A DNA stretch of 64,000 nucleotides, from positions 433,151-497,150 of the forward strand of contig JAIXWW010000011.1 in NCBI GenBank assembly GCA_027491085.1, written 5' to 3'. The DNA is from Bacteroidota bacterium (lineage in GTDB: Bacteria > Bacteroidota > Bacteroidia > UKL13-3). Every line of letters begins with the position of its first letter. Position 1 is the first letter of the stretch. The notes beneath the pieces are model-generated. The model worked only from the letters and a program-made list of their open reading frames with translations. It searched no databases and was not told the DNA's origin. Below, in pieces: positions 10,775 through 33,932 of this stretch. Position numbers and translations under genes: made by a program.

Positions 10775-10809
10775 GGCCTCATAGTTCAATGGATAGAATA
10801 GATGTTTCC
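10775..10809 (+). repeat. 35-nt partial copy of the tRNA-Arg(CCT) 5' half (island left boundary, att-like)
   Basis: Exact 35/35 identity with 33861-33895. Identity stops inside the anticodon loop. Confidence 0.8.
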
Positions 10810-11101
10810 CATTTTTTCACTTTTTCCAGGTTATAACATCCTGATTACCTGTATTCTACATTTATTTTTCAATATTTCAGTGCAAGTTCAGCGTGCAAGA
10901 GTGAAGATTTTCAATGGATTTTTACCCCCCTACTTTGCGTCTTGAGATAGTATGTTGGAGCAATAAAAAACTCCCTGCTTTTGAAACAAGGAGTTCAACT
11001 CTCTCTAACTAATAATTTTAAAATGGTTAAATCCGAAATTCACCTAAATTAGGCTAAGAATGTTGGATTGACTTTGGCTTGTAAATTATTGTCAGAAAAA
11101 A

Positions 11102-11548
11102 TTATTTCTTTCTAAAAATCAATTTTTGATATACTGACTCCGCTTGACTAACTGCATCTTCTTTAAAATTTAATACAAAAGAAGTGTCGCATATTTCTTC
11201 TATACAGGTTTTACCATAATCATTTTTGCCAATAGTAATAAGGTATAATTTGTTATTGGAATTCTGAACACTGTATGTTCCTGTTAAAGGAACTGTATCC
11301 TTACCAATAGTTGAATAGGTTAGGTCTGGCTTTAACGTAATTACGATAGCGTCTTTTCCAATTTGTTCATAAACCAATTTGTTGTCTGAAACGTTTAAAT
11401 ATTGAGCTTTAGTTGTGCCCCAAGTACCATACAATGAAGCATAGTTAAAATTTGGGGTTGGAGTAGTTGTTGCCTCCTCTTTTTTACAAGAGAAGAAAAA
11501 AACACATAAAAGTGTGCTAATAATAATAAAACGGCTAGTTGTTTTCAT
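11102..11548 (-). CDS. hypothetical lipoprotein
   Basis: Signal peptide with lipobox-like FFSCKK. 148 aa. Confidence 0.45.
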   Translation of the reverse strand: MKTTSRFIIISTLLCVFFFSCKKEEATTTPTPNFNYASLYGTWGTTKAQYLNVSDNKLVYEQIGKDAIVITLKPDLTYSTIGKDTVPLTGTYSVQNSNNKLYLITIGKNDYGKTCIEEICDTSFVLNFKEDAVSQAESVYQKLIFRKK

Positions 11549-12140
11549 TTTTATTTATTTATTTAAACGAAAATACTTATCGGTTGATAATTATTTTGAC
11601 ATCAATTAAATAAATGAAATATAGTAATACATAATTATAATATAACTTCAGATTAACGAATTAACATTCCTAAAATTAGAAAAGAATTTAACCAGAAAGT
11701 TTGGATAAAAGGATAAACAAAATCAGAACCAATTAAATTATAATAATCCCCCAACAGCGATTATTTAGTTTAATAATAAAAGGAACACTTCAAAAAACAA
11801 AACAAAAAGCTTTTAAATGTTTCCTTAGTTACCAATTTTTTTAGGTGATAACAATCCGATTAGCAGTATTCTATATTAATTTGTTTCTAAATCACTGCAA
11901 GTTCTGCTTGCAACTTTCAGGTAATTAATCCAATAAGAGATTCAAACCTTGTAAATAATCCCTTTAAAAAAGTATATTGATTTTTAACTTTGATTCATTT
12001 GATATGAAGTTTAATAATGAATCTAAAGATTAAATCCTTAAATTCATTATTAACGAATCTTATTTATCCGATTATTTTGAAAGTTTCCATTCCTGAATGA
12101 AAACATAATTGAGTTTGCAAGTATGGATATATTTAAATCC

Positions 12141-13130
12141 TTACGAAAGTAATTTATTTTTAATAATAACTGCATCCTTACTAGAATCTAAAAACACCTC
12201 AATTGGTAGGTGATTTCCGTGAAAAAATATACTTACCAAATTACTATTTGTATTTATCTCTTTAATTTGTCGTTTTAAGTGGGTTGATGAAATTGCCTCT
12301 CCACTCCCATTTATTTGCCAAAAAATGATTTGATTTCCTCTCAAAATGAAAATCATTAATCCACTATTTCCGCCTATCTTTTCACTAATTTTTTGTCCAA
12401 TTTGGTTGAATACCCCATTTTCAAATTTTTTAATATCATAACTCCATTTTTGCATCATGCTATTTCTTTTAAAATTAAAAATAACAGTATCAGTATCAGA
12501 AATTCCTTCATTTTCCAACACCTCAATAGATTTATTGTAAATAGAATTTAAGAATTTATTATAAAATTTATCTTTATTCTCAGTTATAAATTCACTATAA
12601 TCAATATTACCAATTCTATTGGTGAAAATAAAGGGGTAAAACCTATGGGCTATTTCAAAAATCAATAATTTGTTATCTTTCAATAAAGCCTTATTTTCAA
12701 TTTCCTTCTCCAAAAAAGTTAAAAAATGAACAAATTTCCATTTTCCAACTCTTCTGTCTCCATTAGATAACAATAATTGGTATTCATCCCTTTTTTCAAA
12801 AATTCTATCACCAATAACTGATTGGCTTTTATTAGAATCATTTAAAGTTTCATAGGTGTAATTACAAATTGAACGAAAATCATTATGCATTACTTTACTT
12901 CTAATTTCTTCTATTAATTCCTCTGATATATATTCAATTTCTTCCTTACTAGCAATAAATTCGGCTACATTAGATGATTTGTTTTCTATCAATTTTGAAT
13001 ATTCGGAATAACAATTCCTATACCAAGTATCAAATTCCTTTATTTCATTTTCAAAGTTTTCTTCAATCAAAAATACGCTATCAAATCCTTTACTAATAAG
13101 GTCATAATGCTTTTCTTTTTGGTATTTCAT
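12141..13130 (-). CDS. hypothetical protein
   Basis: 329-aa ORF, no motif recognised. Confidence 0.4.
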   Translation of the reverse strand: MKYQKEKHYDLISKGFDSVFLIEENFENEIKEFDTWYRNCYSEYSKLIENKSSNVAEFIASKEEIEYISEELIEEIRSKVMHNDFRSICNYTYETLNDSNKSQSVIGDRIFEKRDEYQLLLSNGDRRVGKWKFVHFLTFLEKEIENKALLKDNKLLIFEIAHRFYPFIFTNRIGNIDYSEFITENKDKFYNKFLNSIYNKSIEVLENEGISDTDTVIFNFKRNSMMQKWSYDIKKFENGVFNQIGQKISEKIGGNSGLMIFILRGNQIIFWQINGSGEAISSTHLKRQIKEINTNSNLVSIFFHGNHLPIEVFLDSSKDAVIIKNKLLS

Positions 13131-13265
13131 TTAATGTATTATTTGTTTTTTCAGTTGGACAAAATATGTGCCAAAAAACTAAGTTAAAGCTAAAATACAT
13201 AAACTAAAAAACTTACAGATAAATAATTTTATCATTTAGATGAACACCAATTCACAAATAGAGAT

Positions 13266-13451
13266 TCAAGGTGTTTTCGGGTAATAATTTTGTCCTTGAT
13301 AATCAAGAATTGGATAATTAAATCCTAAGTTTAATAAATACCTAATGTTATCGTGATTACAGTTCAAACAATTACAATTCCAAACCATAAGGAATGAACC
13401 ACAATTAAGGCATTGATAGGTATAATTTAAGTAGTTTTCCATTTCCTTCAT
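13266..13451 (-). CDS. small Cys-rich (zinc-ribbon-like) hypothetical protein
   Basis: CLNCG...CNCLNCNH pattern. 61 aa. Could be spurious. Confidence 0.2.
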   Translation of the reverse strand: MKEMENYLNYTYQCLNCGSFLMVWNCNCLNCNHDNIRYLLNLGFNYPILDYQGQNYYPKTP

Positions 13452-14445: not shown

Positions 14446-14751
14446 ATGAGAAGTTTAAAACTAGTTGGTAATTCAATCTTTAACAAGATGATTGAAAATA
14501 ATTATTACCTGATAAATAATCACCTTCTATTCAAGTATTCTGGTGTTGAAATAGACCCAAACAATCGTAAAATAGTTATGGGTGAAGGTAAGTTCGTAAA
14601 TACATTAAATGGTAATTTAACAATGCTAGAAGACCCTTTAGAAAAAATTGAAATTATACCATTCAATCAGGTAAATACAATTCAATACATATCTTCAATT
14701 GATTTTGATGAACTATTAAATGATTCATACTATAACTACAATCAAATATGA
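14446..14751 (+). CDS. hypothetical protein
   Basis: ORF whose stop overlaps the start of the next ORF (ATGA), operon-like. Confidence 0.3.
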   Translation: MRSLKLVGNSIFNKMIENNYYLINNHLLFKYSGVEIDPNNRKIVMGEGKFVNTLNGNLTMLEDPLEKIEIIPFNQVNTIQYISSIDFDELLNDSYYNYNQI

Positions 14752-14963
14752 CATTTAATGAACTAAAATCACAAATAGACCAACTTGACCAAAAACAACT
14801 TAATCAAGAGGTTTATATCCGTTTTATTGATAACAAATTAAACTTTCAATTCATTCAACTTATATCCATTAAACATAGTGGCATAGAAAAAGATGGTATT
14901 AATTGGGCTTGGATGTTTGCTGAAAAACTTCCTACCAAACAAAAATATCAATTCAACAACTAA
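14748..14963 (+). CDS. hypothetical protein
   Basis: 71-aa ORF translationally coupled to the upstream ORF. Confidence 0.3.
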   Translation: MTFNELKSQIDQLDQKQLNQEVYIRFIDNKLNFQFIQLISIKHSGIEKDGINWAWMFAEKLPTKQKYQFNN

Positions 14964-15067: not shown

Positions 15068-15676
15068 TTACAATACCCCCCAATCAACCACTATTTGTGT
15101 GGTATCATTATGCTTTCCCCTTTTTAACATATAATCAAAACAATCTTTTTTCTTTTCCCTATCAAACTTCTTAAACAAGTCATCTATATTTCCCCTTATT
15201 TGTTTTTTATAATCAGTCATCTTTATTGATTTATCCTTCTTCATAATCACAAAATGTATATGGTTAGGTCTATCAAATAATGTCTCATTCTCATACTTTA
15301 ACATCCTATGAACTGAATAAAATATCGTAAATCCTGAATTTGATATAAAATCCTTTAATCGCTCAGGAGACCATTCAGTTACAGGACTTACACAACAAAA
15401 ATAATCCCATTCAATTGAACGAAACCATTCCCAATAACTTTCATATTTTACATTATTTAATAAATTAACATAGCCCTGTTCTTGTGGTTTATAAGTTCTC
15501 TCTATTACTTTATCCAATAACCTTATATCAACTCTATACCTATTGTTTGCTCCGGGCTTCCCTCCTCCTTTAATATACTGAGGATATTTGGGTTTTAATT
15601 TTCTTACCTTTTCTTTTAACCACCTAGTTTTTAAAGTGGTATATTTTGATAATTCTGTGATTGTAAATGTTTTCAT
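15068..15676 (-). CDS. hypothetical protein with HUH-like motif (possible Rep/relaxase-like)
   Basis: HIHFVI (His-hydrophobic-His-hydrophobic x3) followed by DYKKQ Tyr/Lys. N-terminal basic HTH-like segment. 202 aa. Confidence 0.35.
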   Translation of the reverse strand: MKTFTITELSKYTTLKTRWLKEKVRKLKPKYPQYIKGGGKPGANNRYRVDIRLLDKVIERTYKPQEQGYVNLLNNVKYESYWEWFRSIEWDYFCCVSPVTEWSPERLKDFISNSGFTIFYSVHRMLKYENETLFDRPNHIHFVIMKKDKSIKMTDYKKQIRGNIDDLFKKFDREKKKDCFDYMLKRGKHNDTTQIVVDWGVL

Positions 15677-16065: not shown

Positions 16066-16623
16066 ATGAATGCTTTTGAGTTTATCATCAACTATAAAAA
16101 ACTATTATCTATGATTGAGCAAGTGGCTCAACCTCAATTCCTGAAATACACATATAAATTAAGGAAGGAAAAACCTTGGTCTTTAATCAAATCTAATACT
16201 ACTTTCAACTCTGAATTAGAAGCTTTGGGGTTTGTATTTTCAAACGTCTTAAATTTGTTTTATGAGGATTTGAAAAACCTTGATTTTGACGATGATGAAT
16301 TTCTATTGTATGCTGATGATTGGTTTATGCAAGCAATGAACCTTGAATTTGGAAAGTCAAAAAATACCTTAAAGGATAACCCTTTAGTTTGGATAACTGA
16401 TTTATCTAGGGACACAAAAAGAAAGGAATTCAACTTTAAAATTGAAGTGTTTTATGATAAAAAAACTAAATCAGTTAAAAAACTAATGGTATCAGGGTTT
16501 AATAAGAAAACCAAAAAGCTTATAGGGTATTCAACTGCAATATTTTTAGGTGAGAATATTGATGATTTAATAAAAGAAATCAATGATATGGCTATTCTTA
16601 TTTTTAAAGAATATAAACCTTAA
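16066..16623 (+). CDS. hypothetical protein
   Basis: 185-aa ORF, no motif recognised. Confidence 0.35.
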   Translation: MNAFEFIINYKKLLSMIEQVAQPQFLKYTYKLRKEKPWSLIKSNTTFNSELEALGFVFSNVLNLFYEDLKNLDFDDDEFLLYADDWFMQAMNLEFGKSKNTLKDNPLVWITDLSRDTKRKEFNFKIEVFYDKKTKSVKKLMVSGFNKKTKKLIGYSTAIFLGENIDDLIKEINDMAILIFKEYKP

Positions 16624-17306
16624 ATCAATCGTTTAACTATTCCTGGACTAAACTCACAACCATTTCTTGTTTTATAACCATTCTCGTTGAGTAGTCTTGA
16701 TATTTGAGAATAATGAACATAACCATTCTTCATCTTAAAATGTTCAATAAATGTTTTAGCCATTTTCCAATTTGGATTTTCTTCTCTATTTCTTTTAACA
16801 GCAACTCTTCCCTTTGCTTTGGCTTCTTCAGTTAAGTTTTGAGGGGACCCAAGTTTTCGTGTTTTCTTTAATTCCTGTAAAGCACTTTTGGTTCTTTGTG
16901 AGATGAGTTCTCTTTCATATTGTGCCATAGTTCCAAAAATACCTAGCGTTAGTGTATTGAGTTCTGGAAGAGCCAAACAATGAAGTTTAACTCCTCTTCT
17001 ATGAATAGCGAATAAAAACTCTACTTCCCTACTTAATCTATCCAATTTTGTAAATAACAAAACATACCCATTCTTTTCGCATAAGTTAAGGGCTTTATCC
17101 AAACCAGGTCTTTGATTGTTCTTTCCGCTCTCTTGTTCTAAAATAGTATTTACCAACGAACCATTATTCCTTGATATAAAATCTAAAATCTGTGTTTGTT
17201 GTTCTTCTAATCCAAGATTTTGTTTTCCTGTGCTCGTTCTAACATAAGCTATATATTTTTCCATTTTCTGATCCTTTTTGCTAATGTAAGGATCCTTTTT
17301 GAACAA
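16620..17306 (-). CDS. serine recombinase (resolvase/invertase family)
   Basis: N-terminal catalytic domain YVRTSTGKQ (catalytic Ser) and LDRLSRE motif, C-terminal HTH. Likely true start is MEKYIAYV at ~17264. Confidence 0.85.
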   Translation of the reverse strand: MFKKDPYISKKDQKMEKYIAYVRTSTGKQNLGLEEQQTQILDFISRNNGSLVNTILEQESGKNNQRPGLDKALNLCEKNGYVLLFTKLDRLSREVEFLFAIHRRGVKLHCLALPELNTLTLGIFGTMAQYERELISQRTKSALQELKKTRKLGSPQNLTEEAKAKGRVAVKRNREENPNWKMAKTFIEHFKMKNGYVHYSQISRLLNENGYKTRNGCEFSPGIVKRLI

Positions 17307-17415: not shown

Positions 17416-17422
17416 ACTTAGT

Positions 17423-17983
17423 TTATTTTGGAGATATTTTTCCTTCGTCATTAAAATACAAATCTTTTTTATTTTGCTTCTCTCTCATACGTTCCCTAAA
17501 ACCAACTGGCATTTTTAGAAACTCTGTTTCAAAAATAGAATCTCTTCCTTCTTCTAAGTCATTTAAAAATAAAGCCATTGGAAACTTTTTAAGAATACCT
17601 TTCTGAATTGCTTCAAGTGCTTTTTGTTCAATTATTTTGTTATCAATCCCTGCCTTAAAATCTTCAGTAGTTGCAACATAAACCATAATTTGATTTTTTT
17701 TTCCTTTATATGGAAAGGAAGATATTGCCCTAAAATATGGCTTGGGCTTTATTCCGTTTTTATCTTTTCTAGGTTCGGGATTTACTATTGAAATATTAAT
17801 TTTAGGTTCTAAATATGCCATCCACATTTCATAATTAGATTTTAAATATTCTAACTGAAGTGTTAATTTTTTAATATTTTCTTCCCTATCACTTATTTTT
17901 CGTTTATAGTAACTCATTAGCCCTGATTTTTTCTTAGATACAGGTGTCATTATAGTTTCATCCTTTAACTTATTTTTTTCCAT
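17423..17983 (-). CDS. hypothetical protein
   Basis: 186-aa ORF, charged and coiled-coil-like. Confidence 0.4.
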   Translation of the reverse strand: MEKNKLKDETIMTPVSKKKSGLMSYYKRKISDREENIKKLTLQLEYLKSNYEMWMAYLEPKINISIVNPEPRKDKNGIKPKPYFRAISSFPYKGKKNQIMVYVATTEDFKAGIDNKIIEQKALEAIQKGILKKFPMALFLNDLEEGRDSIFETEFLKMPVGFRERMREKQNKKDLYFNDEGKISPK

Positions 17984-18003
17984 ATTTTATACTTAAAAAT
18001 CAT

Positions 18004-23193: not shown

Positions 23194-23205
23194 AAAATAA
23201 ATTAT

Positions 23206-23961: not shown

Positions 23962-24064
23962 ACGTTTAAAGTGATGATGTTGCTTAAAAATCAGTTTGAT
24001 ATTTTAATTTAGAAATTCCAATTAGTAAAAAAAAGACATTTAAATATTTTAAAATACAACATAT

Positions 24065-24973: not shown

Positions 24974-25632
24974 ACTCCCTCACCCTCATAGAACAATCTG
25001 GGTTCAAAATCAATCCACCTAAAATTGTATTTGTGCCATTTACAGAAGAAAAACTTCAAGGGATTAGCACTAGAGAGTTTGGTAGTCCTTACGAAAATAT
25101 GGATGACAAAATTGGTGGCAATTTGTATTTATGGCTGCAACAAACCAATTCTGTTTTATGGCAAATAAGTGATGAACAGGTATTGATTTTTGCAAATACA
25201 GTTGAAAAGTTAGGTGAGCGTTTTGCCACACTAATGAAGTTACCAAAAGAAGAGGGTAAAGCGGTATGTATAGAAATGGTTAAATCCTTAGCCATTTCTA
25301 CTTATATTATTGAAAATAGTATCTTTAAAATACAAGGCAATTGGCTGTTAAAATACCGCAATAAAGAACTAGGGGGTACTCTTCAATACTTCTTGCTTTG
25401 GCTCACCAAACATGAGCTTCAAGGGAATATTCAAGCCAACAAAGCCTTGGATATTTACATCGAAAAATTTGCCAAGAATGTTAATTTGGATTTGTTTAGT
25501 AATTACCCTTCAAGTGAAATTATGGAGGCATTTATTTATTGCTTTTTTAGAGGAAATAACGAAACAAAAATGCTATTTGCTAAACTAGAAAATCCTAACT
25601 ATTCTCTAAATGAACTCATTACTATTCCATAA
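24970..25632 (+). CDS. hypothetical protein
   Basis: 220-aa ORF, translationally coupled to the previous ORF. Confidence 0.4.
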   Translation: MNSLTLIEQSGFKINPPKIVFVPFTEEKLQGISTREFGSPYENMDDKIGGNLYLWLQQTNSVLWQISDEQVLIFANTVEKLGERFATLMKLPKEEGKAVCIEMVKSLAISTYIIENSIFKIQGNWLLKYRNKELGGTLQYFLLWLTKHELQGNIQANKALDIYIEKFAKNVNLDLFSNYPSSEIMEAFIYCFFRGNNETKMLFAKLENPNYSLNELITIP

Positions 25633-26077
25633 TAAAAGCACAATGAATTCAGATAAATGGAAGATTTATGTTAATGGCTATAAAAATGAAATAGACCTAT
25701 ACCATCGTATTGATAGTGATTGGCTAGAAGGGGGTATAAAATTATATTTGGGAAATGAGGAATATAGCATTCCCTTAAGTCTATTATTAGTGGAAGAGTT
25801 ACATGATTTTCTCAATTGGTTAATAAAAAAACAAAGTGGTATTGAAACCATTCCAATTTTTCAATTTATGGATACAGAACTTTGTTTTGAAACAGTTACT
25901 TCAGATAATGAATTTTATTTAAAATTGAATTTAAACAGAATCAATAAAAAGCAAATCTCTATAATATCGCAAATTTCAGGACCTCAGTCGGAAATGCGTT
26001 CAATAATTGAAGAATTAAACTCGCTAATAACTAAATATCCTTGCCGTTGTAACAATCAACATATTATACTTAAATAA
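25610..26077 (+). CDS. hypothetical protein
   Basis: 155-aa ORF overlapping the previous ORF. Ends convergent with the NT5C-like paralog. Confidence 0.35.
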   Translation: MNSLLFHNKSTMNSDKWKIYVNGYKNEIDLYHRIDSDWLEGGIKLYLGNEEYSIPLSLLLVEELHDFLNWLIKKQSGIETIPIFQFMDTELCFETVTSDNEFYLKLNLNRINKKQISIISQISGPQSEMRSIIEELNSLITKYPCRCNNQHIILK

Positions 26078-26618
26078 TAAGTTTCCCTTTATTTTTTGGT
26101 TCAAATGTTTCAGGCCAAAACACTTCATAATTATCAATTAGGTATACCAATACTTTGTCCCAGTCTTTAAACTCCTCACTGCCTAAAGGAATGAGTTCAT
26201 TTATAAATTTATCCGAACCATTATTTCCTTTGCGGTCTATCAAATAATGGCCCACTTGCAAATCTTTTCTGTGGCTTAAAATTAGTTTTTTTCTAAAGTT
26301 TTCTCCAAAGTGATTTTCAACCCAAATTCTCTTATCAGTATACATATTGGGTATATCCCAACAAGGCGCAGAAATAAAATAAATATCGTAAAAATTACTC
26401 AAGCTATTAATGGATTGAATAGCAAGATTGATAGGTGATAGATTTTGATAATAATGAGGGTATTCTAAATATACGTTTTTAAGGGCAACTTCTTTTTCTG
26501 TTTCAAATAAATGCTCCCAATTATTTACTCTTTTCATTACATTATCAGAAAGATCAACCACTATATCGTCAAGTTCTATTAAGAGTAGTTTTTTACGTAA
26601 AGTTACTTTCTTTATCAT
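26070..26618 (-). CDS. NT5C-like HAD paralog, probably catalytically degenerate
   Basis: Clear paralog of 22654-23193 (YFISAPCWDIPNMYTDKRIWVENHF...KKLILSHRKDL versus YFLSAAMWNVPESYTEKRLWIEKHF...KKLILTHRKNL). Motif I is IELDD instead of IDMDG. Confidence 0.6.
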   Translation of the reverse strand: MIKKVTLRKKLLLIELDDIVVDLSDNVMKRVNNWEHLFETEKEVALKNVYLEYPHYYQNLSPINLAIQSINSLSNFYDIYFISAPCWDIPNMYTDKRIWVENHFGENFRKKLILSHRKDLQVGHYLIDRKGNNGSDKFINELIPLGSEEFKDWDKVLVYLIDNYEVFWPETFEPKNKGKLII

Positions 26619-26629
26619 ATGGCTAAGTT

Positions 26630-27187
26630 TTAAAATTTAATAAAGTTTTGCAACCAGATAGTGGCACATTCAAAACGATTTTTAGAATTACCTAAAACTA
26701 CTTTTCTAACTGAAGTGTGAGTTAAGTTGGGGTTCAAGATGTTTGATCTGTGTCCTCTACTTTGTGAAGAGTAATCTATTAAAGCTATTAAGATTGAGGC
26801 TCTAATGCTAGTACCATATGTGATATTTTCACCTATACTTTTGCAAGGGATTTTCAACCATGAATAAGTTCTATCGTGATCCATATCTCTTTTTGTGCTA
26901 TCCGCTAAGTGTTTGTTAGCTTCTTTACGAACTTCCTCAGAGATTTTGTAAGCAGGAAGGGGTTTCATTGAATCCAACAATGGGATAAGTTCCTTGATAG
27001 CTATTTCTCTTTCTGGTGCAAATCTTGTTGAATTTGCGTAAGCTTTAACATATTGAATGTAAGCTTTAGGATTGGTTCTTATCAGGTTGATTTCGTTTAT
27101 GTATGCCAGTTCTTCTGCTGAATGTTGTCCAAAACAACAAATAGGTGCAAAAAAAATAAATATAACTATGTTTCTTATTTTGTCCAT
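26630..27187 (-). CDS. secreted CAP-domain (YkwD-like) protein
   Basis: Signal peptide. SRGHRSNILNPNLTH matches the bacterial CAP/YkwD signature GHR.NILNP. Confidence 0.6.
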   Translation of the reverse strand: MDKIRNIVIFIFFAPICCFGQHSAEELAYINEINLIRTNPKAYIQYVKAYANSTRFAPEREIAIKELIPLLDSMKPLPAYKISEEVRKEANKHLADSTKRDMDHDRTYSWLKIPCKSIGENITYGTSIRASILIALIDYSSQSRGHRSNILNPNLTHTSVRKVVLGNSKNRFECATIWLQNFIKF

Positions 27188-27744
27188 GATCTGTTAAGGT
27201 ATATATGAAAATCAGTATAAATATCCTTTAATAACTTAATATCTCTTCGCAAGGTTCTTTCAGTAACTTGGTTTTCTTCACAATATTTATCTATATCTAA
27301 TTGTCTATTTTTTAACGTAGAAACATATAAATTAATTATTCTTCTATACTTTTGAAGCATTAGGCTTTGCCTATTTGATTGTTGCCGAATAAAATCTTTC
27401 TTATTCATAATTATCTTATCTAAACCCTCCAATTTTTCATTTATTATAATAGTATATTTTTTAATTGAACTATCTAATTTTAAATGAGGTGCTCCAATAA
27501 GGACTATAGATAATTCGTTAATTTGTTCATAGGGTACTATTTGATTAAAGTCTTCCAAAATTTTTTCATTTAGTAAATTAGAATCTACAATTATCAAAAA
27601 TGAAGGAACGGCAATAAAATCTTCAATTTTGGTAACCTCATAGTATTCAATGTCACTTTCTGATTTAATGGTTTTTAACTGTTCAATTAATAACTCATTT
27701 TTACTATAAATAAGGATTGTATTCTCTTTGTTAAATTGATTCAT
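27175..27744 (-). CDS. putative transcriptional regulator (receiver-like N-terminus, C-terminal HTH)
   Basis: C-terminal VTERTLRRDIKLLK resembles a DeoR/HTH_11-type helix-turn-helix. Overlaps the CAP gene by 13 nt. Confidence 0.4.
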   Translation of the reverse strand: MNQFNKENTILIYSKNELLIEQLKTIKSESDIEYYEVTKIEDFIAVPSFLIIVDSNLLNEKILEDFNQIVPYEQINELSIVLIGAPHLKLDSSIKKYTIIINEKLEGLDKIIMNKKDFIRQQSNRQSLMLQKYRRIINLYVSTLKNRQLDIDKYCEENQVTERTLRRDIKLLKDIYTDFHIYLNRSWTK

Positions 27745-27830
27745 ATTTCGAAAATAATGCTATTTTCAATTATTAAAAGTTTATTAGGTCCTATATTTGT
27801 CCATTATACCATTTCATAAACTATTTTTCT

Positions 27831-27927
27831 ATTACCTTCCAACAATATTGGTGTAGGAATGGGGTTGATACACGGAAGTAAACTGTATAACCTATTATAG
27901 ATTTATAAGTAACTTCATATCATTTGA
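27831..27927 (+). repeat. direct repeat copy 2: remnant of an integrase 3' end (no integrase ORF attached)
   Basis: Encodes ...PSNNIGVGMGLIHGSKL, matching the last ~19 codons of the integrase at 20195-21658, then a shared downstream segment. Confidence 0.8.
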
Positions 27928-28094
27928 GTATAAGTTAAACACATCTTTTCTAAAGTTAATTAAACCCTCCGAGGATTGATAATGGAATTCAATGGATTTT
28001 GGATACTTCTTTACTATTTTAGAATCCCTAATCCAATTTCAGAATAAATGTATAGTGAGAAAAGTAAATTCCTAAATTGATTTTAACTGTGTTC

Positions 28095-28562
28095 TTACTT
28101 TTTAATTTCTTTAAAAAGAACATATACAAATTGGTTGTTTTCTGCATCAAATGAAATTAAAAATTCCATTCCATTTATAAAACCAGAAGAAGATTCGTGT
28201 ATTATTTCATTACTTTTAGTAATAATGTCATTTTTCTCTTTTGATTTAGTTTCAGAAGTAACTATCAACAAATCTGTAGTAATATTTGAACCATTAATAA
28301 AATTACTTGCCTGACTTCTTGCTTTAACATTAGCAACCCTGCTCATAATAGATTCACTTGAATATTTTCCTTTATCAAGTATTACAACGGAAATCAAATA
28401 ATTTTTTGTCGCATCATTTAATAATTTTACTCCCTCAAACTTACTTTCTTCGTACATTCTTTTGACATAATTTGCAATGGATTGATTTGACCTAATTGTC
28501 TGTGAAGAAATTTGAGAATTAAACTTAAAAATAAATAAAATTGAAAATACTAAATATCTCAT
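28095..28562 (-). CDS. secreted hypothetical protein
   Basis: Signal peptide. 155 aa. Confidence 0.4.
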   Translation of the reverse strand: MRYLVFSILFIFKFNSQISSQTIRSNQSIANYVKRMYEESKFEGVKLLNDATKNYLISVVILDKGKYSSESIMSRVANVKARSQASNFINGSNITTDLLIVTSETKSKEKNDIITKSNEIIHESSSGFINGMEFLISFDAENNQFVYVLFKEIKK

Positions 28563-28578
28563 AATGTTAAAAAAATAA

Positions 28579-29319
28579 TTAGTATTTTATACAACGAACC
28601 GAAAAACCACATCCTAAATCTTTACCTCTATAATCATCTAATAACCCTTTTTCTTGATCATTAAATAATCTAAAATAACCAGCATACCTATTTCCAATTT
28701 TACTGCTGCTCCACCATATTCCAGTTTTACCATATGTCAAAAAAATTGTATTCTGTATTTTGGAAGTTCCATCCATATTACCATAATGATCAATATGTAA
28801 TCCTGGGAGTGCATTAAAACCAGTACTGTTATAATACTTTTTTGCATAATTAACCTTACTATTTGATTCTATGGCATATTCAGGTAATTCCATTTTTTTA
28901 CCATCCATTAATTTTACTATTTCCCAACCTTCTTTACTTTTTAGTTTAGAACCGTCACCCCCAACTTCATCTATTAATTCCTTCCACTCCTCAATTGAGG
29001 GAACATGCCAACCTTCAGGGGCTAAACCTCTTTTGTCATTCACTGCATACCAGTTATATAGTTTGCCGTATTTTTCATTATTTGTTGGGTCAAAATGTAA
29101 ATAACACCAAGCAGGGGTTTCATCATCATTAGCTTTTTTCCAATCTTCACGTGATTTTGCCTCTGGAATAATATCTCCATTTTTAAAATGGTTTACATCC
29201 AAATTTTTAACCATCCAGACTTGAATACCTATTTTAACGCTGTTATTAATTTCACTTTGCGCAATACTTTTAAATGTTATAGTTAAAAGTATTATACTAA
29301 TTATAATATTTTTTTTCAT
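28579..29319 (-). CDS. Fibrobacter succinogenes major paralogous (Fib_succ_major) domain protein
   Basis: Signal peptide. IGIQVWMVKNLDVNHFKNGD and C-terminal GFSVRCIKY match the Fib_succ_major signature (G.QVWM.eNL ... SVRC). Confidence 0.7.
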   Translation of the reverse strand: MKKNIIISIILLTITFKSIAQSEINNSVKIGIQVWMVKNLDVNHFKNGDIIPEAKSREDWKKANDDETPAWCYLHFDPTNNEKYGKLYNWYAVNDKRGLAPEGWHVPSIEEWKELIDEVGGDGSKLKSKEGWEIVKLMDGKKMELPEYAIESNSKVNYAKKYYNSTGFNALPGLHIDHYGNMDGTSKIQNTIFLTYGKTGIWWSSSKIGNRYAGYFRLFNDQEKGLLDDYRGKDLGCGFSVRCIKY

Positions 29320-29363
29320 TATTTAAGATGTTAACATTAAAGAATATATCAAAAATCCTCAGC

Positions 29364-30515
29364 CTAATCTATTCCAATTGGATAGATTTTAATACTTTCA
29401 ATTCTTTTTATTTTATCCAAGTCTTCGACTCTATAAAAGTTTATAGTCTTCTTTTGTGGTATTGAAAGGTCAATTAGAAAATCAAATGGTTTTGTGAATA
29501 TTATTTTACCCGATTTTAAATTAATAGTTGCTCTATCACTATTGTAGGGTTTAATTATTTTCTGAAAATTATTAATGCCATTATTAAAGCCATCACTAAT
29601 TGAATAAAATGATTTAAAATTATTACTATAAAAATTATTTTCATACCCAACATCTTTTTTGTTTTGAGCGTTTGAATCGTATTTTTTGTATCTAAGAAAA
29701 TTAACAATTGAAAATTTTTCAAAACCATAATCCACTACAGCACTTTTCCTTAATTCATCAAACTCATTCAATTGTTCGTTCAAAATTTTGTTGCAATCCT
29801 TATATAAAATACACTCTATTGAACTTGACTTGTTTAAAGCGATTATATATTCATCGGTTTGAATACCCATACTCTTGTATTCAATTGATTGACTTTTACT
29901 AAGAGACAATGATTTTAAGGAACTAACAATGTAATTTGTAAAGGATTTATAATTTTCTACATTGGGTTGAATTTGAATTTCACAATAAAATCCGCTTACA
30001 AGTATTTTACTCATTTTAAAATCATATTCATAATAATTATTCTTTGTCTTTGATAAGTCTACAACTTTGAAAAGATTTTTTAAAGCCGTTAATGTTGCAC
30101 TTCTATTCAGCTCAATATTTGTAATATTGGAGGCAAAGAGCGAACCGTTTACTTTAACTTCAGAATGACCCTTTTGTTGACAGTATTCAACAATTTTATT
30201 TAATGACACTATTGCTGTTATAGAAACACTATAATTAAATTGGTCAATTAAGTATTCTCCATTAATTTGATAACTTTTAATATTTCCGTTTGATATTGAC
30301 TCAATATTTTCACTAATTAATTCATCATTTATTATTGTTGAACTAGATGTTAAATATGCACCTGAAACTTGTTCAATTGCAGATCTTAATGCTACTCTAA
30401 TAGCATCTTCCTTATTTTTACCTATGGCTGAGGTTTTAATTTCCACTTCATTCCCAGCATTAACACTAAAAGTGAAAAATAATTGAATTAATAAAATAGT
30501 AATTGTTTTTTTCAT
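29364..30515 (-). CDS. secreted hypothetical protein
   Basis: Signal peptide. 383 aa. Tightly spaced with neighbours. Confidence 0.45.
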   Translation of the reverse strand: MKKTITILLIQLFFTFSVNAGNEVEIKTSAIGKNKEDAIRVALRSAIEQVSGAYLTSSSTIINDELISENIESISNGNIKSYQINGEYLIDQFNYSVSITAIVSLNKIVEYCQQKGHSEVKVNGSLFASNITNIELNRSATLTALKNLFKVVDLSKTKNNYYEYDFKMSKILVSGFYCEIQIQPNVENYKSFTNYIVSSLKSLSLSKSQSIEYKSMGIQTDEYIIALNKSSSIECILYKDCNKILNEQLNEFDELRKSAVVDYGFEKFSIVNFLRYKKYDSNAQNKKDVGYENNFYSNNFKSFYSISDGFNNGINNFQKIIKPYNSDRATINLKSGKIIFTKPFDFLIDLSIPQKKTINFYRVEDLDKIKRIESIKIYPIGID

Positions 30516-30533
30516 TGTTTTAAAAATTATAGT

Positions 30534-31514
30534 TTACCAAATAATATTGTATGTGTATCTTGTGGGTTGATTTTTGTAGTATTCAATTGAAATTTCCTTA
30601 TAAGCTTGAATTCTTTTTTGCTCTAAATCATATTCTCTTTCTTTTGAAATTTTCTCAACTTGAATTTTTTCATTATATCTTCTAATTTCCTCTGCTTCAG
30701 CATTTTTTTTATCTAGTGCTACTTTGTTTTGAAAAATTAAAATCAAAGAATCTACTTCATTCATACATTTAGATTCAATATTTATAGAACTTACTATTTG
30801 AAAAATCTCACTTAGAGAATTTTGATTAATTACCCAAATTGATTTTATTTGTTTTAGCTTACTTTCACAATCAAAATCAATCATATTTTGATAAATTTTT
30901 GAACTCAAACTAATACATTTGTTGTGACATTCTAAACATGCATTAGGAACAGAGTTTAACAAATAAATTGCCTCTCTAAAATTATGTTGTAACTCTAAAT
31001 TTGATGCTTCTAGTAAAATTGATTCACAATTATTAGCGTAGTAGTTAATTATTTTTTCCCTTCCCTCTTTAAAAAATAATGTTAAATCCGATGAATTCGT
31101 TTTTAAGTTTTTAAGGGCATTTAGTTGCGCTTTAATTTCTGACTCACCTACACCTTTCAAAGTGAAAGAAATATTTGAATACAATCTATTATCAATGGCA
31201 TCACCTATATAAAATGAAACTATAATTTTAATTGCAATTAATTTTATAGCTCCTGTAATAACTTCTTTATTCAATAAAGTTATTTTATTTGTGAATACAA
31301 ATCTTGGATTAATACTATTACCTGACATACCATTATTTGTTAAAATTGTATTCATTTGATTTGAAAGCATGCCCTTTGCATCCGAGCTTAAATCATTTGA
31401 ATTAATAATGGGATTTAAAATTATTCTGTAAATTTCCGGGTTATTTGATTCATTTTTCTGAGCTTTTAACTCACAGAATTGGATCGATAATAAAAAAACT
31501 ATTAAATATTTCAT
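30534..31514 (-). CDS. secreted hypothetical protein
   Basis: Signal peptide. 326 aa. Coiled-coil-like C-terminus. Confidence 0.45.
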   Translation of the reverse strand: MKYLIVFLLSIQFCELKAQKNESNNPEIYRIILNPIINSNDLSSDAKGMLSNQMNTILTNNGMSGNSINPRFVFTNKITLLNKEVITGAIKLIAIKIIVSFYIGDAIDNRLYSNISFTLKGVGESEIKAQLNALKNLKTNSSDLTLFFKEGREKIINYYANNCESILLEASNLELQHNFREAIYLLNSVPNACLECHNKCISLSSKIYQNMIDFDCESKLKQIKSIWVINQNSLSEIFQIVSSINIESKCMNEVDSLILIFQNKVALDKKNAEAEEIRRYNEKIQVEKISKEREYDLEQKRIQAYKEISIEYYKNQPTRYTYNIIW

Positions 31515-31515
31515 T

Positions 31516-32463
31516 TTATTTTTCTCCTATTACTAAAATTGACTCGCCAAGCCCCCGGATCATCAACTTGCTTGTTATTAAATATGGTTCCTTTTTTAAT
31601 TCTAGCTGTAAACCTCGTAGAAATTTTCTAGCATCTAAAGGTAATCCATCTTTAATAGTAGGTATTCTTACTTGCTCAAAAAGCATGAAATTCTCATTTG
31701 CATCAGTCAAGTTATAAGTACTATTAATTGAATTTTTTGAAACCCATTCTTCAATTATTTGATTAACTTCTTTTCCCCCAATTTCATCTTCTAAATTTTT
31801 ATCCCAATTGTCCCATTTTTTTATCCTAATCACAACCTCTCTTCCATTGATTTGTATATCACTGAAATAGTCTTTCAATTGTTTTAAAAATGGATTTAAG
31901 TTCTTTTTTATGGCATTTTCTAAAATTGTTGCCATAACTTTATTTTCATTCATTTTACATGTGCCACTAGAAACCGCTACTCTTTTACTCGTATATGCGT
32001 CTAAAGCTTCTAATGTAAATGAAATTGAGTTATCTGAATTTAAATTCCACCATATTTGAATAATTAAATCTGCCTTTGCTTGTTTAATGATTTTATCAAG
32101 AGGTGATTCTGAAATATCTGAATTTGATTTTGTACTAGATGTAACCAAATCTTCTCCAGAAATTTTGGATAGATTTTTTATCTCTTGCTCTGCATCTTTT
32201 AATCTAAATCCATTATCAATCATTAATTGACCAATCTTAGAGATTACTAAGCCAATTTCGGTGTCTTCTTGAAATGCTCTTTTATAATCTGGTGTTTTAA
32301 TTGATAAGCCTTGATTTTCAGTTTTTGACATAAAATATCTTTGTTCACACCAATTATCAGAGGGAATCACCATTAAAGTTGGCATTTTGTTTTGACTTAG
32401 AGCTGCAGCTATCCCTAGATGACAAAAAATTAAGAATAGAAATCTTATAAAAAGTAGTTTCAT
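31516..32463 (-). CDS. secreted hypothetical protein
   Basis: Signal peptide. 315 aa. Start is 2 nt from the stop of the downstream gene. Confidence 0.45.
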   Translation of the reverse strand: MKLLFIRFLFLIFCHLGIAAALSQNKMPTLMVIPSDNWCEQRYFMSKTENQGLSIKTPDYKRAFQEDTEIGLVISKIGQLMIDNGFRLKDAEQEIKNLSKISGEDLVTSSTKSNSDISESPLDKIIKQAKADLIIQIWWNLNSDNSISFTLEALDAYTSKRVAVSSGTCKMNENKVMATILENAIKKNLNPFLKQLKDYFSDIQINGREVVIRIKKWDNWDKNLEDEIGGKEVNQIIEEWVSKNSINSTYNLTDANENFMLFEQVRIPTIKDGLPLDARKFLRGLQLELKKEPYLITSKLMIRGLGESILVIGEK

Positions 32464-32683
32464 TAATTTATTTTATTAAATACAATTAGCTTATTGATGG
32501 TTTACATTATTTGTAAAAAGTTGAATACTCATTATTTCTTAATTAAATCTGATTTCAACTTATTTGTTAACAAAAGCTTTACTCCTTTTGGCTCAGGTAC
32601 AATAGCTGGCTTTGGATGTTTAAGTTTTACTTTTTTACTTTTCAAGTTTATAGATGGTTAATTATCATTGTGTTTAAAATTAG

Positions 32684-33142
32684 CTAAATCTCTAAAAAAT
32701 CAGGATCCATTGAAATCAATGTAATTGTTTCAAAATTATTTTGATTGAATTTGCTCCAACTCAAAATCAAACTTTCAATCAACCTTGCTCTTTCAAACTG
32801 TCTCATTTCAAACTCTGGTTTGATATTGTTTTCAGGTTGTAAAATATTATTATCTCCGTTGGTTGCTAAGTGTTTTTTACCTTTTTGGTTTGCTTCTTTT
32901 AACCAATCGTGAATGGTGCTTCGTAATTTCTCATCCGAACATTGACTTGAATCTATAAACCTAATAAGCCTATTTGAATGATTTGGATAATTAATTGGTT
33001 GAGCAGATAAAAAAGGGTTATCATAAATACCAATTTGTTTGGTTGTTCTACTCATTTCCATTCCGTAGTGCCCGAATACCAATGAATAGTCAGTATTCGT
33101 CAATTGAAAAATGTCTCCTTGTATTTTGATTAATTTGAGCAA
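32684..33142 (-). CDS. hypothetical protein (weak macro-domain-like N-terminus)
   Basis: IKIQGDIFQ resembles the macro-domain start I.VV.GDIT, but the following Gly-rich NAD-ribose motif is not conserved. Confidence 0.35.
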   Translation of the reverse strand: MLKLIKIQGDIFQLTNTDYSLVFGHYGMEMSRTTKQIGIYDNPFLSAQPINYPNHSNRLIRFIDSSQCSDEKLRSTIHDWLKEANQKGKKHLATNGDNNILQPENNIKPEFEMRQFERARLIESLILSWSKFNQNNFETITLISMDPDFLEI

Positions 33143-33237
33143 AGTTTATTTCTTTAACAACTGATTAAGTTACAAATAAAATAATTTAATTATCAATTTA
33201 ATAATTTTTTTATCATTAAGTAAGTAAATATATCATA

Positions 33238-33639
33238 GTGACAAAATATTATAATGTAACCTTGTGTATGCATATCGGCTTACGAATTAAGATTGCTAGA
33301 ATTAGTAAAGAACTTAAGCAAGAGGAGCTTGCAGAAATGATAAATAAAACACGCCCTCTCATTTCAAGTATAGAACAAACAGGTAAAGCCAGCCATTATA
33401 CATTAAAGAAAATATGTGAAGTTTTGGATTTAGATATCAATGAATTAGAGTCTTCAGTTGTATCCGAATCATCAGAATTAAACGTCAATCAACGTGAGCA
33501 ATTATTAAGTTTAAAAAATAGAATAAAAGAAATAGAAGAGGACAATGATAACTTAAGGTCACTTGTTTCTGCACAATCAGAATTAATAAAAAAACAAAAG
33601 GAATTCATTAATAAACAAAGTAAAAATCTTAAATTTTAA
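33238..33639 (+). CDS. XRE-family HTH transcriptional regulator with coiled-coil tail
   Basis: IGLRIKIARISKELKQEELAEMINKTRPLISSIEQ is a Cro/C1-type HTH. Sits adjacent to the island right end. Confidence 0.7.
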   Translation: MTKYYNVTLCMHIGLRIKIARISKELKQEELAEMINKTRPLISSIEQTGKASHYTLKKICEVLDLDINELESSVVSESSELNVNQREQLLSLKNRIKEIEEDNDNLRSLVSAQSELIKKQKEFINKQSKNLKF

Positions 33640-33860
33640 TTATTCAGTTTATTATCAAAACTTTTTATTCGTTTAACTTCCTATCTATTGACACCAAGTC
33701 AAAAACCCCTTATTAATTATTAATGCACCTTACTTAATTTTTTTGCATTCTAGGGTGCAAATTGATTACTTTTGAAGACTAAAATTGCAATAATGCAAGA
33801 AAATTAACTAGATTTGTAAGTAAGTAAATCCATAAATCACTCTTTTTCAAGTTTTTATAT

Positions 33861-33932
33861 GGCCTCATAGTTCAATGGATAGAATAGATGTTTCCTAAAC
33901 ATTTGATATGAGTTCGATTCTCGTTGAGGCTA
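33861..33932 (+). tRNA. tRNA-Arg (anticodon CCT)
   Basis: Manual cloverleaf: acceptor GGCCTCA/TGAGGCT (G1-U wobble), D-stem GTTC/GAAT, anticodon stem GATGT/ACATT with loop TTCCTAA (U33, anticodon CCT, A37), T-loop TTCGATT. Confidence 0.8.

Follow-up and report, generated by a model that had tools for sequence, protein, structure and literature searches.

The 64,000-nt stretch of DNA analysed here (hereafter, the window), from an uncultured freshwater Bacteroidia bacterium, carries a segment of about 23 kb between sucD and a tRNA-Arg(CCT) gene. Is this segment an integrated mobile element, and how could it have entered a tRNA gene from the 5' side? We put a probability of about 0.8 on the reading that positions 10810-33860, together with one copy of a 35-nt repeat, constitute a mobile genomic island integrated by site-specific recombination at tRNA-Arg(CCT).

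Boundaries of the island

The following elements delimit the segment:
10775-10809, + strand: attL core, a displaced 5' fragment of tRNA-Arg(CCT), positions 1-35 (35/35 match to 33861-33895)
10810-11101: left arm, P' side of attP, with TTCAGTGCAAGTTCAGCGTGCAAG conserved in the window, L004, L007 and L008
33640-33860: right arm, P side of attP, with TGCAA repeats and copy 4 of a junction motif (see below)
33861-33933, + strand: intact tRNA-Arg(CCT), attR (ARAGORN; Rfam tRNA, 62.8 bits; empty-site comparison with L002)

The 35-mer GGCCTCATAGTTCAATGGATAGAATAGATGTTTCC is present in exactly two copies in the 64-kb window (10775-10809 and 33861-33895), both on the + strand, and none is expected from 100 shuffles, even with three mismatches allowed. 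The start-to-start distance of 23,086 nt equals the island length. The left copy begins 3 nt downstream of the sucD terminator hairpin (10736-10772). The two copies agree up to C35, the middle base of the anticodon C34-C35-T36; at the following position the left copy has C and tRNA-Arg has T. These results bear out an earlier note on this DNA, which had described an exact repeat of the tRNA-Arg 5' half ending in the middle of the anticodon. ARAGORN, which the note had proposed as a check, calls the full tRNA-Arg(CCT) at the right end, leaving the left copy uncalled; the start given in the note (33861) is correct, but with the discriminator base counted the gene ends at 33933, not 33932. Pfam searches also recovered the genes that the note had placed between the repeats (integrase, serine recombinase, ParB-methyltransferase, RadC and XRE) and, on identical flanks, the core genes outside them (FtsH, RadA-like, sucD and GlyRS). 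The G+C content of the island is 0.25-0.31, compared with 0.30-0.38 in most flanking windows.

The empty site and relatives at the same locus

A related sequence, L002, is 97.8% identical to the window over the 10.8-kb left flank and has a scarless empty site, in which the sucD terminator is directly joined to an intact tRNA-Arg followed by the window's right flank (GIY-YIG, S8 peptidase, GT87, ComM and GlyRS). Its identity is 100% to window positions 10701-10809 and 98% to 33853-34100. Thus, as expected of an integrative mobile element, an attB allele exists with its junction exactly at the repeat, and by this comparison the 5' half (1-35) of the tRNA at attR is island-derived and the 3' half chromosomal. 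The earlier note had proposed looking for such an allele; it had also considered that the repeat might belong to a dispersed element, but with two copies in the window the 35-mer is not a dispersed repeat.

Related islands in L004/L023, L007/L024 and L025 are inserted at this site too and share its junction, GTTTCC followed by CATTTTTTCAC; their flanks are about 91% and their integrases 75% identical to those of the window. The tRNA fragment and the junction of the window also recur in L004/L007/L023. The tRNA-Arg gene lies downstream of sucD in relatives down to 77% flank identity, either immediately 3' of it (L002, L005, L006, L010) or behind a PAS kinase gene (L001, L003). Logan unitigs break at the 35-nt repeat. 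A 23,111-nt island unitig, identical to the window, is present in an independent read set, and L025 is a 15,135-nt assembly unitig with the repeat at its bounds, which shows how large the island is in its simple form. Parts of the island are more similar between lineages than the surrounding chromosome (left arm of L008, 96% vs. 90.4% for the flank; lipoprotein of L012, identical vs. 89.9%), which indicates horizontal movement. Two relatives are decayed, namely L026, in which the ParB-methylase is truncated and no tRNA lies within reach, and L021, with a 206-aa integrase fragment.

Backbone genes

Judged from sequence comparisons, the family has a common layout. The backbone is conserved, the cargo on the right side of the integrase varies, and the right end, made up of the 152-aa gene, the XRE gene and the arm, is again conserved. 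The lipoprotein, RadC, small serine recombinase, ParB-methylase and 487-aa tyrosine integrase belong to the conserved backbone. The genes outside the cargo are:
11102-11548, - strand: 148-aa lipoprotein gene, conserved left end (signal peptide and lipobox ...FFFSC)
12141-13130, - strand: variable 329-aa ORF, absent from L023/L025
13551-14000, + strand: RadC-like JAB domain gene, backbone (Pfam PF04002, E=5.6e-36; 89% aa identity in L023)
14446-14963, + strand: two small backbone ORFs (101 aa, 71 aa), conserved in L023, L025, L026 and the P0004 contig
15068-15676, - strand: 202-aa backbone protein, island-family-specific, with an HUH-like HIHFVI motif
16066-16623, + strand: 185-aa backbone ORF (82-89% aa identity in L023/L026)
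16620-17306, - strand: small serine recombinase of the resolvase/invertase type, 228 aa (Pfam Resolvase, E=2.7e-27)
17423-17983, - strand: 186-aa backbone ORF, with a 144-aa ORF in its place in L023
18204-19838, + strand: fusion of ParB_N and N6/N4 DNA methyltransferase, an orphan methylase (Pfam)
19900-20148, + strand: 82-aa ORF, directly upstream of the integrase in every case
20195-21658, + strand: 487-aa tyrosine integrase, presumed catalyst of integration/excision (Pfam Phage_integrase, E=8.4e-16)
32684-33142, - strand: 152-aa ORF, conserved right end (76% aa identity in L023/L025)
33238-33639, + strand: XRE-family HTH regulator, conserved right end (Pfam HTH_3; 78% aa identity in L023/L025)

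From RadC to the integrase, the genes stay together as a block even at 57% integrase identity, and the lipoprotein is 94-99% identical in L023, L025 and L008. All seven clusters of the 202-aa protein (67-97% identical) belong to this island family; its AlphaFold2 model (pLDDT 66.5) has no significant fold match in the PDB. Profile searches gave no family match for the 329-aa ORF, and PADLOC only MTase_II/oMTase matches for the ParB-methylase.

Cargo modules, fusion and the junction motif

The variable part of the island and the copies of the junction motif are arranged as follows:
11986-12011, - strand: junction motif copy 1, left arm/backbone boundary
21742-21767, + strand: junction motif copy 2, integrase/cargo 1 boundary (exact match)
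21768-27830: cargo module 1, with NT5C nucleotidases, a WapI-type immunity protein, a CAP-domain protein and unknowns (Pfam)
27831-27915, + strand: 85-nt remnant of a second integrase allele, from its 3' end (94% identical to 21601-21685)
27911-27936, + strand: junction motif copy 3, integrase remnant/cargo 2 boundary (exact match)
28095-32463, - strand: cargo module 2, five secreted proteins including Fib_succ_major and DUF6175 (Pfam)
33675-33700: junction motif copy 4, in the right arm

Cargo 1 shows 94-98% nucleotide identity to L031/L032/L027, where it stands behind a different backbone, and 61-91% amino acid identity to L026. This second backbone (backbone B) contains DnaB/WYL/PD-(D/E)XK/AAA genes. 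Homology to backbone-B elements (L008, L027, L028) stops at 12077, and homology to their cargo 1 begins again at 21737. L008, which combines backbone B with the same attL, shows no recombinase over the visible stretch of about 15 kb; shared att arms are thus not always accompanied by this integrase. In cargo 2, signal peptides were predicted in 5/5 proteins; Fib_succ_major cargo directly follows the integrase in L023/L025 and the P0004 contig.

The integrase remnant has lost the stop codon, and its three differences in the coding part are all synonymous; L026 has an equivalent remnant with the same integrase start position. The presence of this piece of a second allele shows that the window island is a fusion of two family members. 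A 26-bp imperfect palindrome, AACTTCATATCAtTTGAgTAtAAGTT, occurs in four copies in the island, at every module junction, and in none in the 41 kb of the window outside it. That it is a dedicated recombination site for the site-specific swapping or insertion of whole modules, perhaps by the highly conserved small serine recombinase, is a doubtful proposal; the modules exchanged may then be backbone A (with the integrase), backbone B, cargo 1 and cargo 2.

Present mobility

No Pfam, NCBIfam or PHROG match to type IV secretion/conjugation or relaxase genes was obtained for any island ORF, and likewise no Pfam match to capsid, terminase, portal or tail genes or a satellite packaging module. The 202-aa protein, with its HUH-like motif, is the ORF for which the relaxase result is least firm. 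The PHROGs scan, which covered ten backbone ORFs, gave a functional label only for the integrase, and no relatives of the island were found in IMG/VR. With neither conjugation nor virion genes found, movement between cells would need mobilisation in trans.

It is possible, but in our view unlikely, that the island arrived by site-specific integration and is now a fixed, immobile composite whose att sites died through fusion, accretion and decay. The window copy is indeed composite, with its integrase remnant, and L026 and L021 are decayed. The attP junction of a circular form had no exact match in metagenome_contigs or viral_contigs either, a result made uninformative by the lack of known island contigs in the same collection. 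However, the attL and attR cores are identical at 35/35 positions, integrase, XRE gene and the two arms are all conserved and undamaged, a strain as close as 97.8% has an empty site, and the identical 23,111-nt unitig comes from an independent read set. The island may have retained the capacity to excise.

The probable recombinase and its putative arm sites

The 487-aa tyrosine integrase is most likely the catalyst of integration at the tRNA. Its sequence is full length, and an alignment of six family members shows no variation at R242, H430-x-x-R433 or Y465. It has a weak Arm-DNA-bind_5 match (Pfam), shares less than 30% identity with the ordinary integrases of Bacteroidota, and belongs to a small clade of about 500-aa enzymes, none of them characterised. 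No integrases other than those of the tyrosine type are known to target tDNAs (PMC4383910), and the sublocations recognised for crossover include the anticodon loop, according to later summaries of the Williams (2002) classification. Several observations count against this assignment: five of the six family members carry Gln at the conserved His II position, the integrase lies 9-12 kb from both att sites, in agreement with the earlier note, the conserved backbone also encodes a serine recombinase, and L008 has the same attL with no recombinase in view. The internal position results from variable cargo added on the right of the integrase and from the fusion of two elements.

It is quite improbable that the small serine recombinase (16620-17306) integrates and excises the island instead. 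This backbone gene encodes the best-conserved protein between variants (96-98% aa identity in L023/L026 vs. 75% for the integrase), and there is one documented case of an S-core serine recombinase with integrase function, the resolvase-like integrase of the filamentous phage phiRSM (PMC7192596). By contrast, tDNA targeting with an anticodon-loop crossover is a signature of tyrosine integrases (PMC4383910), and every complete family member also encodes a tyrosine integrase of full length whose catalytic residues are intact. Moreover, the best family matches of the serine recombinase are invertases/resolvases, all far below their cut-offs, with the Mpi invertase family first in NCBIfam.

The tyrosine integrase probably binds TGCAAG-type repeats in both arms. 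TGCAAG was observed five times in arm DNA vs. 0.56 expected (a post hoc test), and the left arm has two GTGCAAG repeats, at 10880 and 10893, as well as the terminator of the lipoprotein gene (10968-10996, - strand). The noncoding right arm, which is also the sequence upstream of the rebuilt tRNA-Arg, is about 92% identical to that of L023/L025, compared with 78% for the adjoining XRE protein.

Model of integration

We propose that a conservative site-specific recombination took place between the island attP and the chromosomal tRNA-Arg(CCT). The attP would have carried tRNA positions 1-35 after about 230 nt of conserved right-arm DNA, so that the chromosomal 5' half was stranded beside the sucD terminator (attL) and a complete tRNA was rebuilt at the far end (attR) from the island 5' half and the chromosomal 3' half. 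The crossover would fall at the anticodon or slightly 5' of it, with position 35 as its 3' limit. Identity stops at 35, within the seven nucleotides of the anticodon loop (32-38), so that an overlap region spanning the entire loop would require tolerance of heterology. Transcription of the rebuilt tRNA-Arg would have to start in island DNA.

The opposite scenario, an ancestral segment deleted in L002 with a 35-nt repeat arising by local duplication, draws only on the presence/absence polymorphism and is effectively refuted, given that the L002 junction is the exact product of recombination within the repeat with a perfect tRNA restored, that tRNA-Arg follows sucD across distant relatives, that island parts are more alike between lineages than the chromosome, and that the same site holds different cargo and backbone.

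Comparison with known systems

The integrated island can be set beside several known elements. The Bacteroides mobilizable transposons NBU1 and NBU2 have tyrosine integrases with an N-terminal arm-binding domain and target tRNA genes. The Riemerella 10K island sits in Arg-tRNA (PMC6764341). Like them, the window island is a small Bacteroidota island with a tyrosine integrase, a tRNA target and no conjugation machinery of its own, although its integrase is distant from the ordinary ones of this phylum.

In Streptococcus thermophilus, ICESt1 and ICESt3 exemplify the accretion of integrative and cis-mobilizable elements. The window island is similarly a composite of two related elements at one att site, and backbone-B relatives that share an att arm but lack a recombinase suggest mobilisation in trans. 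Unlike ICESt1/ICESt3, it has no internal att copy or conjugation module, and its fusion point is marked by the integrase 3' remnant and the junction motif.

The layout agrees with the 5'-fragment class of Islander (PMC4383910): one end has the intact tDNA and the other a fragment in the same orientation (both +), with the 5' fragment (1-35) upstream of the rebuilt gene, as the Islander rule asks (a 3' fragment would have to lie downstream), a crossover centred on the anticodon, an internal tyrosine integrase, and a length of 23,086 nt within the 2-200 kb range. This class comprises 159/3919 islands (PMC4383910), so that the geometry called unusual in the earlier note is real but belongs to a documented minority. 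The window island differs in that its integrase, from a small uncharacterised clade, stands mid-element and not beside att, and in its host, an uncultured Bacteroidia. In the anticodon-loop class of Williams (2002), as far as summarised in later papers, one edge of the identity block lies in the loop, as at C35 here, and the block extends from there through the 3' part of the gene, which the element restores, whereas here it starts at the 5' end and extends as far as the loop, meaning that the element restores the 5' part of the tRNA.

Klebsiella arg2A-VII islands with clade I.d integrases also integrate upstream of a tRNA-Arg gene, in contrast, according to their authors, to all other genomic islands, which enter downstream of the target (bioRxiv 10.1101/2020.11.02.365908). 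Their reported sublocation is the D-loop rather than the anticodon loop, and the host phylum is unrelated. Islands with dusA-specific integrases insert into the 5' end of their target as well, but that target is protein-coding and the hosts are Proteobacteria (PMC4482086).

Significance

The mirror-image layout is rare and already documented, making this a solid, fairly ordinary find. The island is a clean, fully delimited case of the minority 5'-fragment type of tRNA integration, with attL, attR, attB and a deduced attP, and the integrases of this clade are candidate site-specific integration tools for Bacteroidota. The family illustrates island growth through cargo accretion beside the integrase, fusion of two elements, and recombinase-less relatives with the same att arm. 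If module swapping at the junction motif were true, the family would be a cassette-exchanging platform nested in a tRNA-integrating element. Finally, with the 5' half and all upstream DNA supplied by the island, integration could amount to a takeover of host tRNA-Arg(CCT) transcription, raising the question of who controls the expression of this essential-type gene once the element, not the host, provides its upstream region.

Boundaries of the island and the empty tRNA-Arg site

The comparisons uphold the proposal of an earlier note that the interval between two copies of a tRNA-Arg(CCT) start is an island, and it is a bona fide tRNA-integrated genomic island of a rare, known 5'-fragment type, mosaic and accreted. 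Its boundary features are as follows:

10736-10772, terminator hairpin of sucD
10775-10809 (+), left copy of tRNA positions 1-35 (attL), starting 3 nt beyond the hairpin
33861-33933 (+), complete tRNA-Arg(CCT) gene (attR)

The tRNA gene was confirmed by ARAGORN and scores 62.8 bits with Rfam. Its 35-nt start, GGCCTCATAGTTCAATGGATAGAATAGATGTTTCC, has a second copy on the same strand of the 64-kb window, at a distance of 23,086 nt, while no chance copy would be expected, even at three mismatches. As claimed, the repeat is exact and stops inside the anticodon: the last identical base is C35 (anticodon base 2), after which the left copy continues with CATTTTTT and the tRNA with TAAACATTTG. The G+C content is 0.25-0.31 within the island versus 0.30-0.38 in most of the flanking intervals.

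An empty site in related genomes, for which the earlier note had proposed to look, was found among contigs encoding a SucD protein identical to that of the window. In the metagenome scaffold L002, which matches the window at 97.8% identity across 10.8 kb of left flank, the sucD terminator is followed by ...TTTTTTAG, the complete tRNA-Arg(CCT) gene (L002 10944-11016) and the right flank of the window (the genes for GIY-YIG, S8 peptidase, GT87, ComM and GlyRS). The scaffold is 100% identical to window positions 10701-10809 and 98% identical to 33853-34100, and its junction matches the exact product expected from entry or exit of the 23 kb by recombination inside the 35-nt repeat. The tRNA-Arg gene also lies immediately 3' of sucD in loci L005, L006 and L010, with flank identity as low as 77%. 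A gene for a PAS histidine kinase (765-1017 aa) separates sucD from tRNA-Arg in L009 (9295-11840; flank identity 97.3%) and in the more distant L001 and L003, and is absent from the window, L002, L004, L005 and L010.

Recombinases of the island

Two recombinases are encoded in the island:

20195-21658, tyrosine recombinase (487 aa)
16620-17306, small serine recombinase of the resolvase/invertase type

The tyrosine recombinase matches the Pfam domain Phage_integrase (E=8.4e-16) and, weakly, Arm-DNA-bind_5, which is typical of Bacteroidota integrases. When six family members (48-75% identity) are aligned, all of them have R242, H430-x-x-R433 and Y465, and five have Gln in place of the second conserved His. 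A word-indexed search of 5.8 billion proteins returned five integrase clusters at 48-75% identity, beyond which only ordinary Bacteroidota integrases at <30% were found. An exhaustive HMMER search of 1.84 billion representatives gave 18 matches at E<=1e-30 and 43 at E<=1e-10, including ~30 full-length proteins of ~500 aa with 25-34% identity. Among 185,579 species-representative genomes, a first scan was empty and a scan with the family alignment detected one fragmentary relative on a 4-kb contig; no relatives were found in IMG/VR. By these searches, the integrase clade is evidently new and small.

The anticodon loop is one recognised crossover sublocation of tyrosine integrases, and tDNA targeting has been reported only for these enzymes (PMC4383910). 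Since a full-length tyrosine integrase is also present in every complete member of the island family, we infer that it is the integrating enzyme.

The island family

Related islands were found at the same place in L004/L023, L007/L024 and L025, whose flanks are ~90-91% identical to the window; all of them share with the window island the junction at which GTTTCC is followed by CATTTTTTCAC. As the L025 island is a 15,135-nt unitig with the repeat at both ends, the simple form of the island measures ~15 kb. The gene order of the family, derived by tblastn, is as follows:

Left end: attL; 148-aa lipoprotein gene (-); variable region
Next: RadC, 101-aa ORF, 71/82-aa ORF; variable region
Middle: 202-aa ORF (-), 185-aa ORF, serine recombinase (-), 186/144-aa ORF (-)
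Integrase block: ParB-methylase, 82-aa ORF, tyrosine integrase; then variable cargo
Right end: 152-aa ORF (-), XRE gene (+), right arm, tRNA

Even at 57% integrase identity (P0004 contig), the genes from RadC to the integrase form one block. Island DNA is more alike between lineages than the surrounding chromosome: the left arm of L008 has 96% identity versus 90.4% for the flank, and the lipoprotein is identical in L012 versus 89.9% for the flank. This difference suggests horizontal movement of the island, not vertical descent. In a different chromosomal context, L021 (3266-3935) encodes 206 aa of an integrase C-terminus (96% nucleotide identity with the integrase of the window). This fragment is followed by the junction motif described below and lies between a NUDIX gene on one side and genes for PorP/SprF and a 2,824-aa adhesin on the other; it is apparently a decayed family member. 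In searches for the right ends of other islands, the exact S8 peptidase and XRE proteins of the right flank and island end had no record, and the GIY-YIG protein retrieved same-strain unitigs only.

At its right end (L023 16236-16362), the L023 island has tRNA positions 1-40, TATCCGCAAAA, followed by a complete, different tRNA-Arg(CCT) allele with the acceptor stem GGTCTCG/CGAGACT. Further on (L023 16363-21458), other small ORFs, including one that encodes an FHFHLFI motif, precede a Phage_integrase ORF of 196 aa. Given this additional allele and ORF, the L004/L023 genome appears to carry a second element, stacked at this same hotspot.

Genes for conjugation, a relaxase, a capsid or packaging were not detected in the island, and an orphan methylase was the only defence-related hit by PADLOC. 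The 202-aa backbone protein, whose homologues are restricted to the island family, carries, on a predicted strand, the HUH-like motif HIHFVI; when an HUH Rep or relaxase was looked for, it had no PDB sequence match, and its predicted model, of moderate quality, had no significant fold match. The element can best be called a small integrative island that would need help for cell-to-cell transfer.

Accretion, fusion and possible exchange of modules

The internal position of the integrase, which the earlier note had pointed out, is real and can be explained by accretion and fusion. A segment of 85 nt (27831-27915) is 94% identical to 21601-21685, a stretch that spans the integrase 3' end and the adjacent downstream DNA. 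Its stop codon is lost, and because the three differences in the coding part are all synonymous in the integrase frame, the segment is evidently the remnant of a second, once-functional integrase allele. It lies between two cargo modules:

21768-27830, cargo 1, left of the remnant: NT5C, WapI immunity protein, CAP
28095-32463, cargo 2, right of the remnant: five signal-peptide proteins, including Fib_succ_major and DUF6175

Cargo 1 resembles the cargo behind the integrase of L026 (61-91% amino acid identity), and L023, L025 and the P0004 contig have cargo of type 2 directly 3' of their integrase genes. Because the remnant divides these two types, the window island is a fusion of two family members, which accounts for both its size and its mid-element integrase.

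The modules meet at a 26-bp imperfect palindrome, AACTTCATATCAtTTGAgTAtAAGTT, referred to here as the junction motif:

11986-12011 (-), junction motif
21742-21767 (+), junction motif
27911-27936 (+), junction motif
33675-33700 (+), fourth copy, with three mismatches

The motif is absent from the 41 kb of the window outside the island; at this stringency 0.96 copies are expected, and four were reached in no shuffle. It is found at every module junction of the window island and at the corresponding junctions of L008, L023, L025, L026, L027, L028, L031, L032 and L021. Cargo 1 in the window and in L026 is flanked by direct repeats that comprise the integrase 3' end and the motif and stop 2-3 nt beyond the latter. 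Whereas the motif does not vary in its left half, its right half falls into classes matching the downstream module.

Besides the window-type backbone with the integrase (backbone A), the family modules are combined with another backbone (B) at the following loci:

L008, 5058-12960
L027
L028
L031, 6800-20687
L032

Backbone B encodes a DnaB-like helicase (DnaB_C), WYL, PD-(D/E)XK and AAA ATPase proteins, with no recombinase in the ~15 kb visible. These elements have the left arm of the window as far as 12077 and its cargo 1 from 21737 on, 5 nt ahead of the motif. In L008, backbone B is located at the tRNA-Arg attL, where GTTTC is followed by TAAAAACCCC; in L031, its neighbour is an OsmC gene, and there is no tRNA within reach.

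One possibility is that the junction motif serves as a site of recombination, perhaps by the serine recombinase, whose conservation between island variants is 96-98%. Alternatively, it may be merely a short conserved sequence where homologous exchange occurs. No inversion between oppositely oriented motifs was observed, as all copies of backbone A seen have one orientation and so have those of backbone B; in more distant relatives, the motif was not found 3' of the integrase gene. A role as XRE operator is less likely, because another palindrome, of the TTATC..GATAA type, is common to the XRE promoter and the region upstream of the lipoprotein gene. A terminator hairpin was rejected for lack of a stable fold, and a degenerate tRNA fragment or secondary att site because local tRNA alignments were not robustly above shuffles.

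Attachment sites and arms

The attachment sites of the island, apart from the two boundaries, are as follows:

attB (empty chromosomal site): tRNA gene of L002, junction ...TTTTCTTTTTTAGGCCTCATAG...GTTTCCTAAACATTTG...
attP (joined site deduced for the free island): right arm, tRNA positions 1-35 and left arm, ...CTCTTTTTCAAGTTTTTATAT-GGCCTCATAGTTCAATGGATAGAATAGATGTTTCC-CATTTTTTCACTTTTTCCAGG..., with the junction sequence ...TTTTTATATGGCCTCATAG...GATGTTTCCCATTTTTTCAC...

As identity ends at position 35, the overlap region must be situated in the first half of the anticodon loop or 5' of it. The deduced attP junction had 0 exact matches in JGI metagenome contigs and IMG/VR, where a control 24-mer from the left arm also gave 0 although it is present in the JGI contigs L007 and L008. 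The 23,111-nt Logan contig L011, considered as an excised circle, has the length of window 10780..33890; a unitig at k=31 that runs from one repeat copy to the other would be this long, and the contig is therefore not evidence for excision. The exact island is present in read sets SRR16126870 and SRR16126839.

The noncoding right arm (230 nt) is ~92% identical between the window and L023/L025, against no more than 76-78% for the adjoining XRE and 152-aa proteins, a difference suggesting that the arm itself is under constraint. In the left arm, TTCAGTGCAAGTTCAGCGTGCAAG is kept in all island types, and a 19-mer related to it lies at 11896. TGCAAG/TGCAA repeats are concentrated in both arms (10880-10899, 11896-11914 and 33743-33799), with five TGCAAG observed versus 0.56 expected in 1,042 nt of arm DNA in a post hoc test. 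They include a duplicated 19-mer, TGCAAGTTCnGCnTGCAA, with one copy on each side of the lipoprotein gene. The TGCAAG/TGCAA repeats are candidate arm-type sites.

The TTATC..GATAA-type palindrome occurs in an AT-rich region of ~90 nt located upstream of the left-end lipoprotein gene (11560-11650) and in the divergent intergenic region of the 152-aa and XRE genes (33150-33240), as well as in L026 (4744-4838). It is a candidate operator linking the regulation of both island ends.

Target geometry and the rebuilt tRNA gene

Directly 3' of the intact tRNA-Arg, both island-bearing and empty-site genomes have an 82-aa GIY-YIG ORF (33952-34200) and, beyond it, a copied tRNA 3' half, which begins exactly at anticodon base C34 (whole region, window 33952-34352 and L002 11035-11440). 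This copy is 98% identical to the tRNA in L002 (11356-11401), and in the window (34273-34310) it is diverged, with a different acceptor strand; the sole terminator-like hairpin (34322-34352) comes after it. The segment looks like a classical-geometry insertion of ~380 bp at this same position of the anticodon loop, and would be either a decayed island or a small mobile unit with GIY-YIG.

At the empty site, the tRNA begins 3 nt past the sucD terminator, and no Bacteroidota-type promoter motif was seen ahead of it when the sequence was read by eye. A candidate island promoter upstream of the rebuilt tRNA, TTG-N21-TAGATTTG (33785-33816), was not accepted, as its -7 box is not conserved in L023.

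The earlier note regarded the geometry of the island, with the 5' half as the partial copy, as unusual. Its rarity stands, with 159 islands with a 5' tDNA fragment versus 3,760 with a 3' fragment in Islander, whose configuration filter expressly permits an upstream 5' fragment (PMC4383910). A Klebsiella survey describes islands with integrases of clade I.d whose insertion point is upstream of a tRNA-Arg gene, "in contrast to all other" genomic islands there (10.1101/2020.11.02.365908). The 5'-fragment geometry is thus rare but already documented, and it means that all DNA upstream of the rebuilt tRNA is derived from the island.
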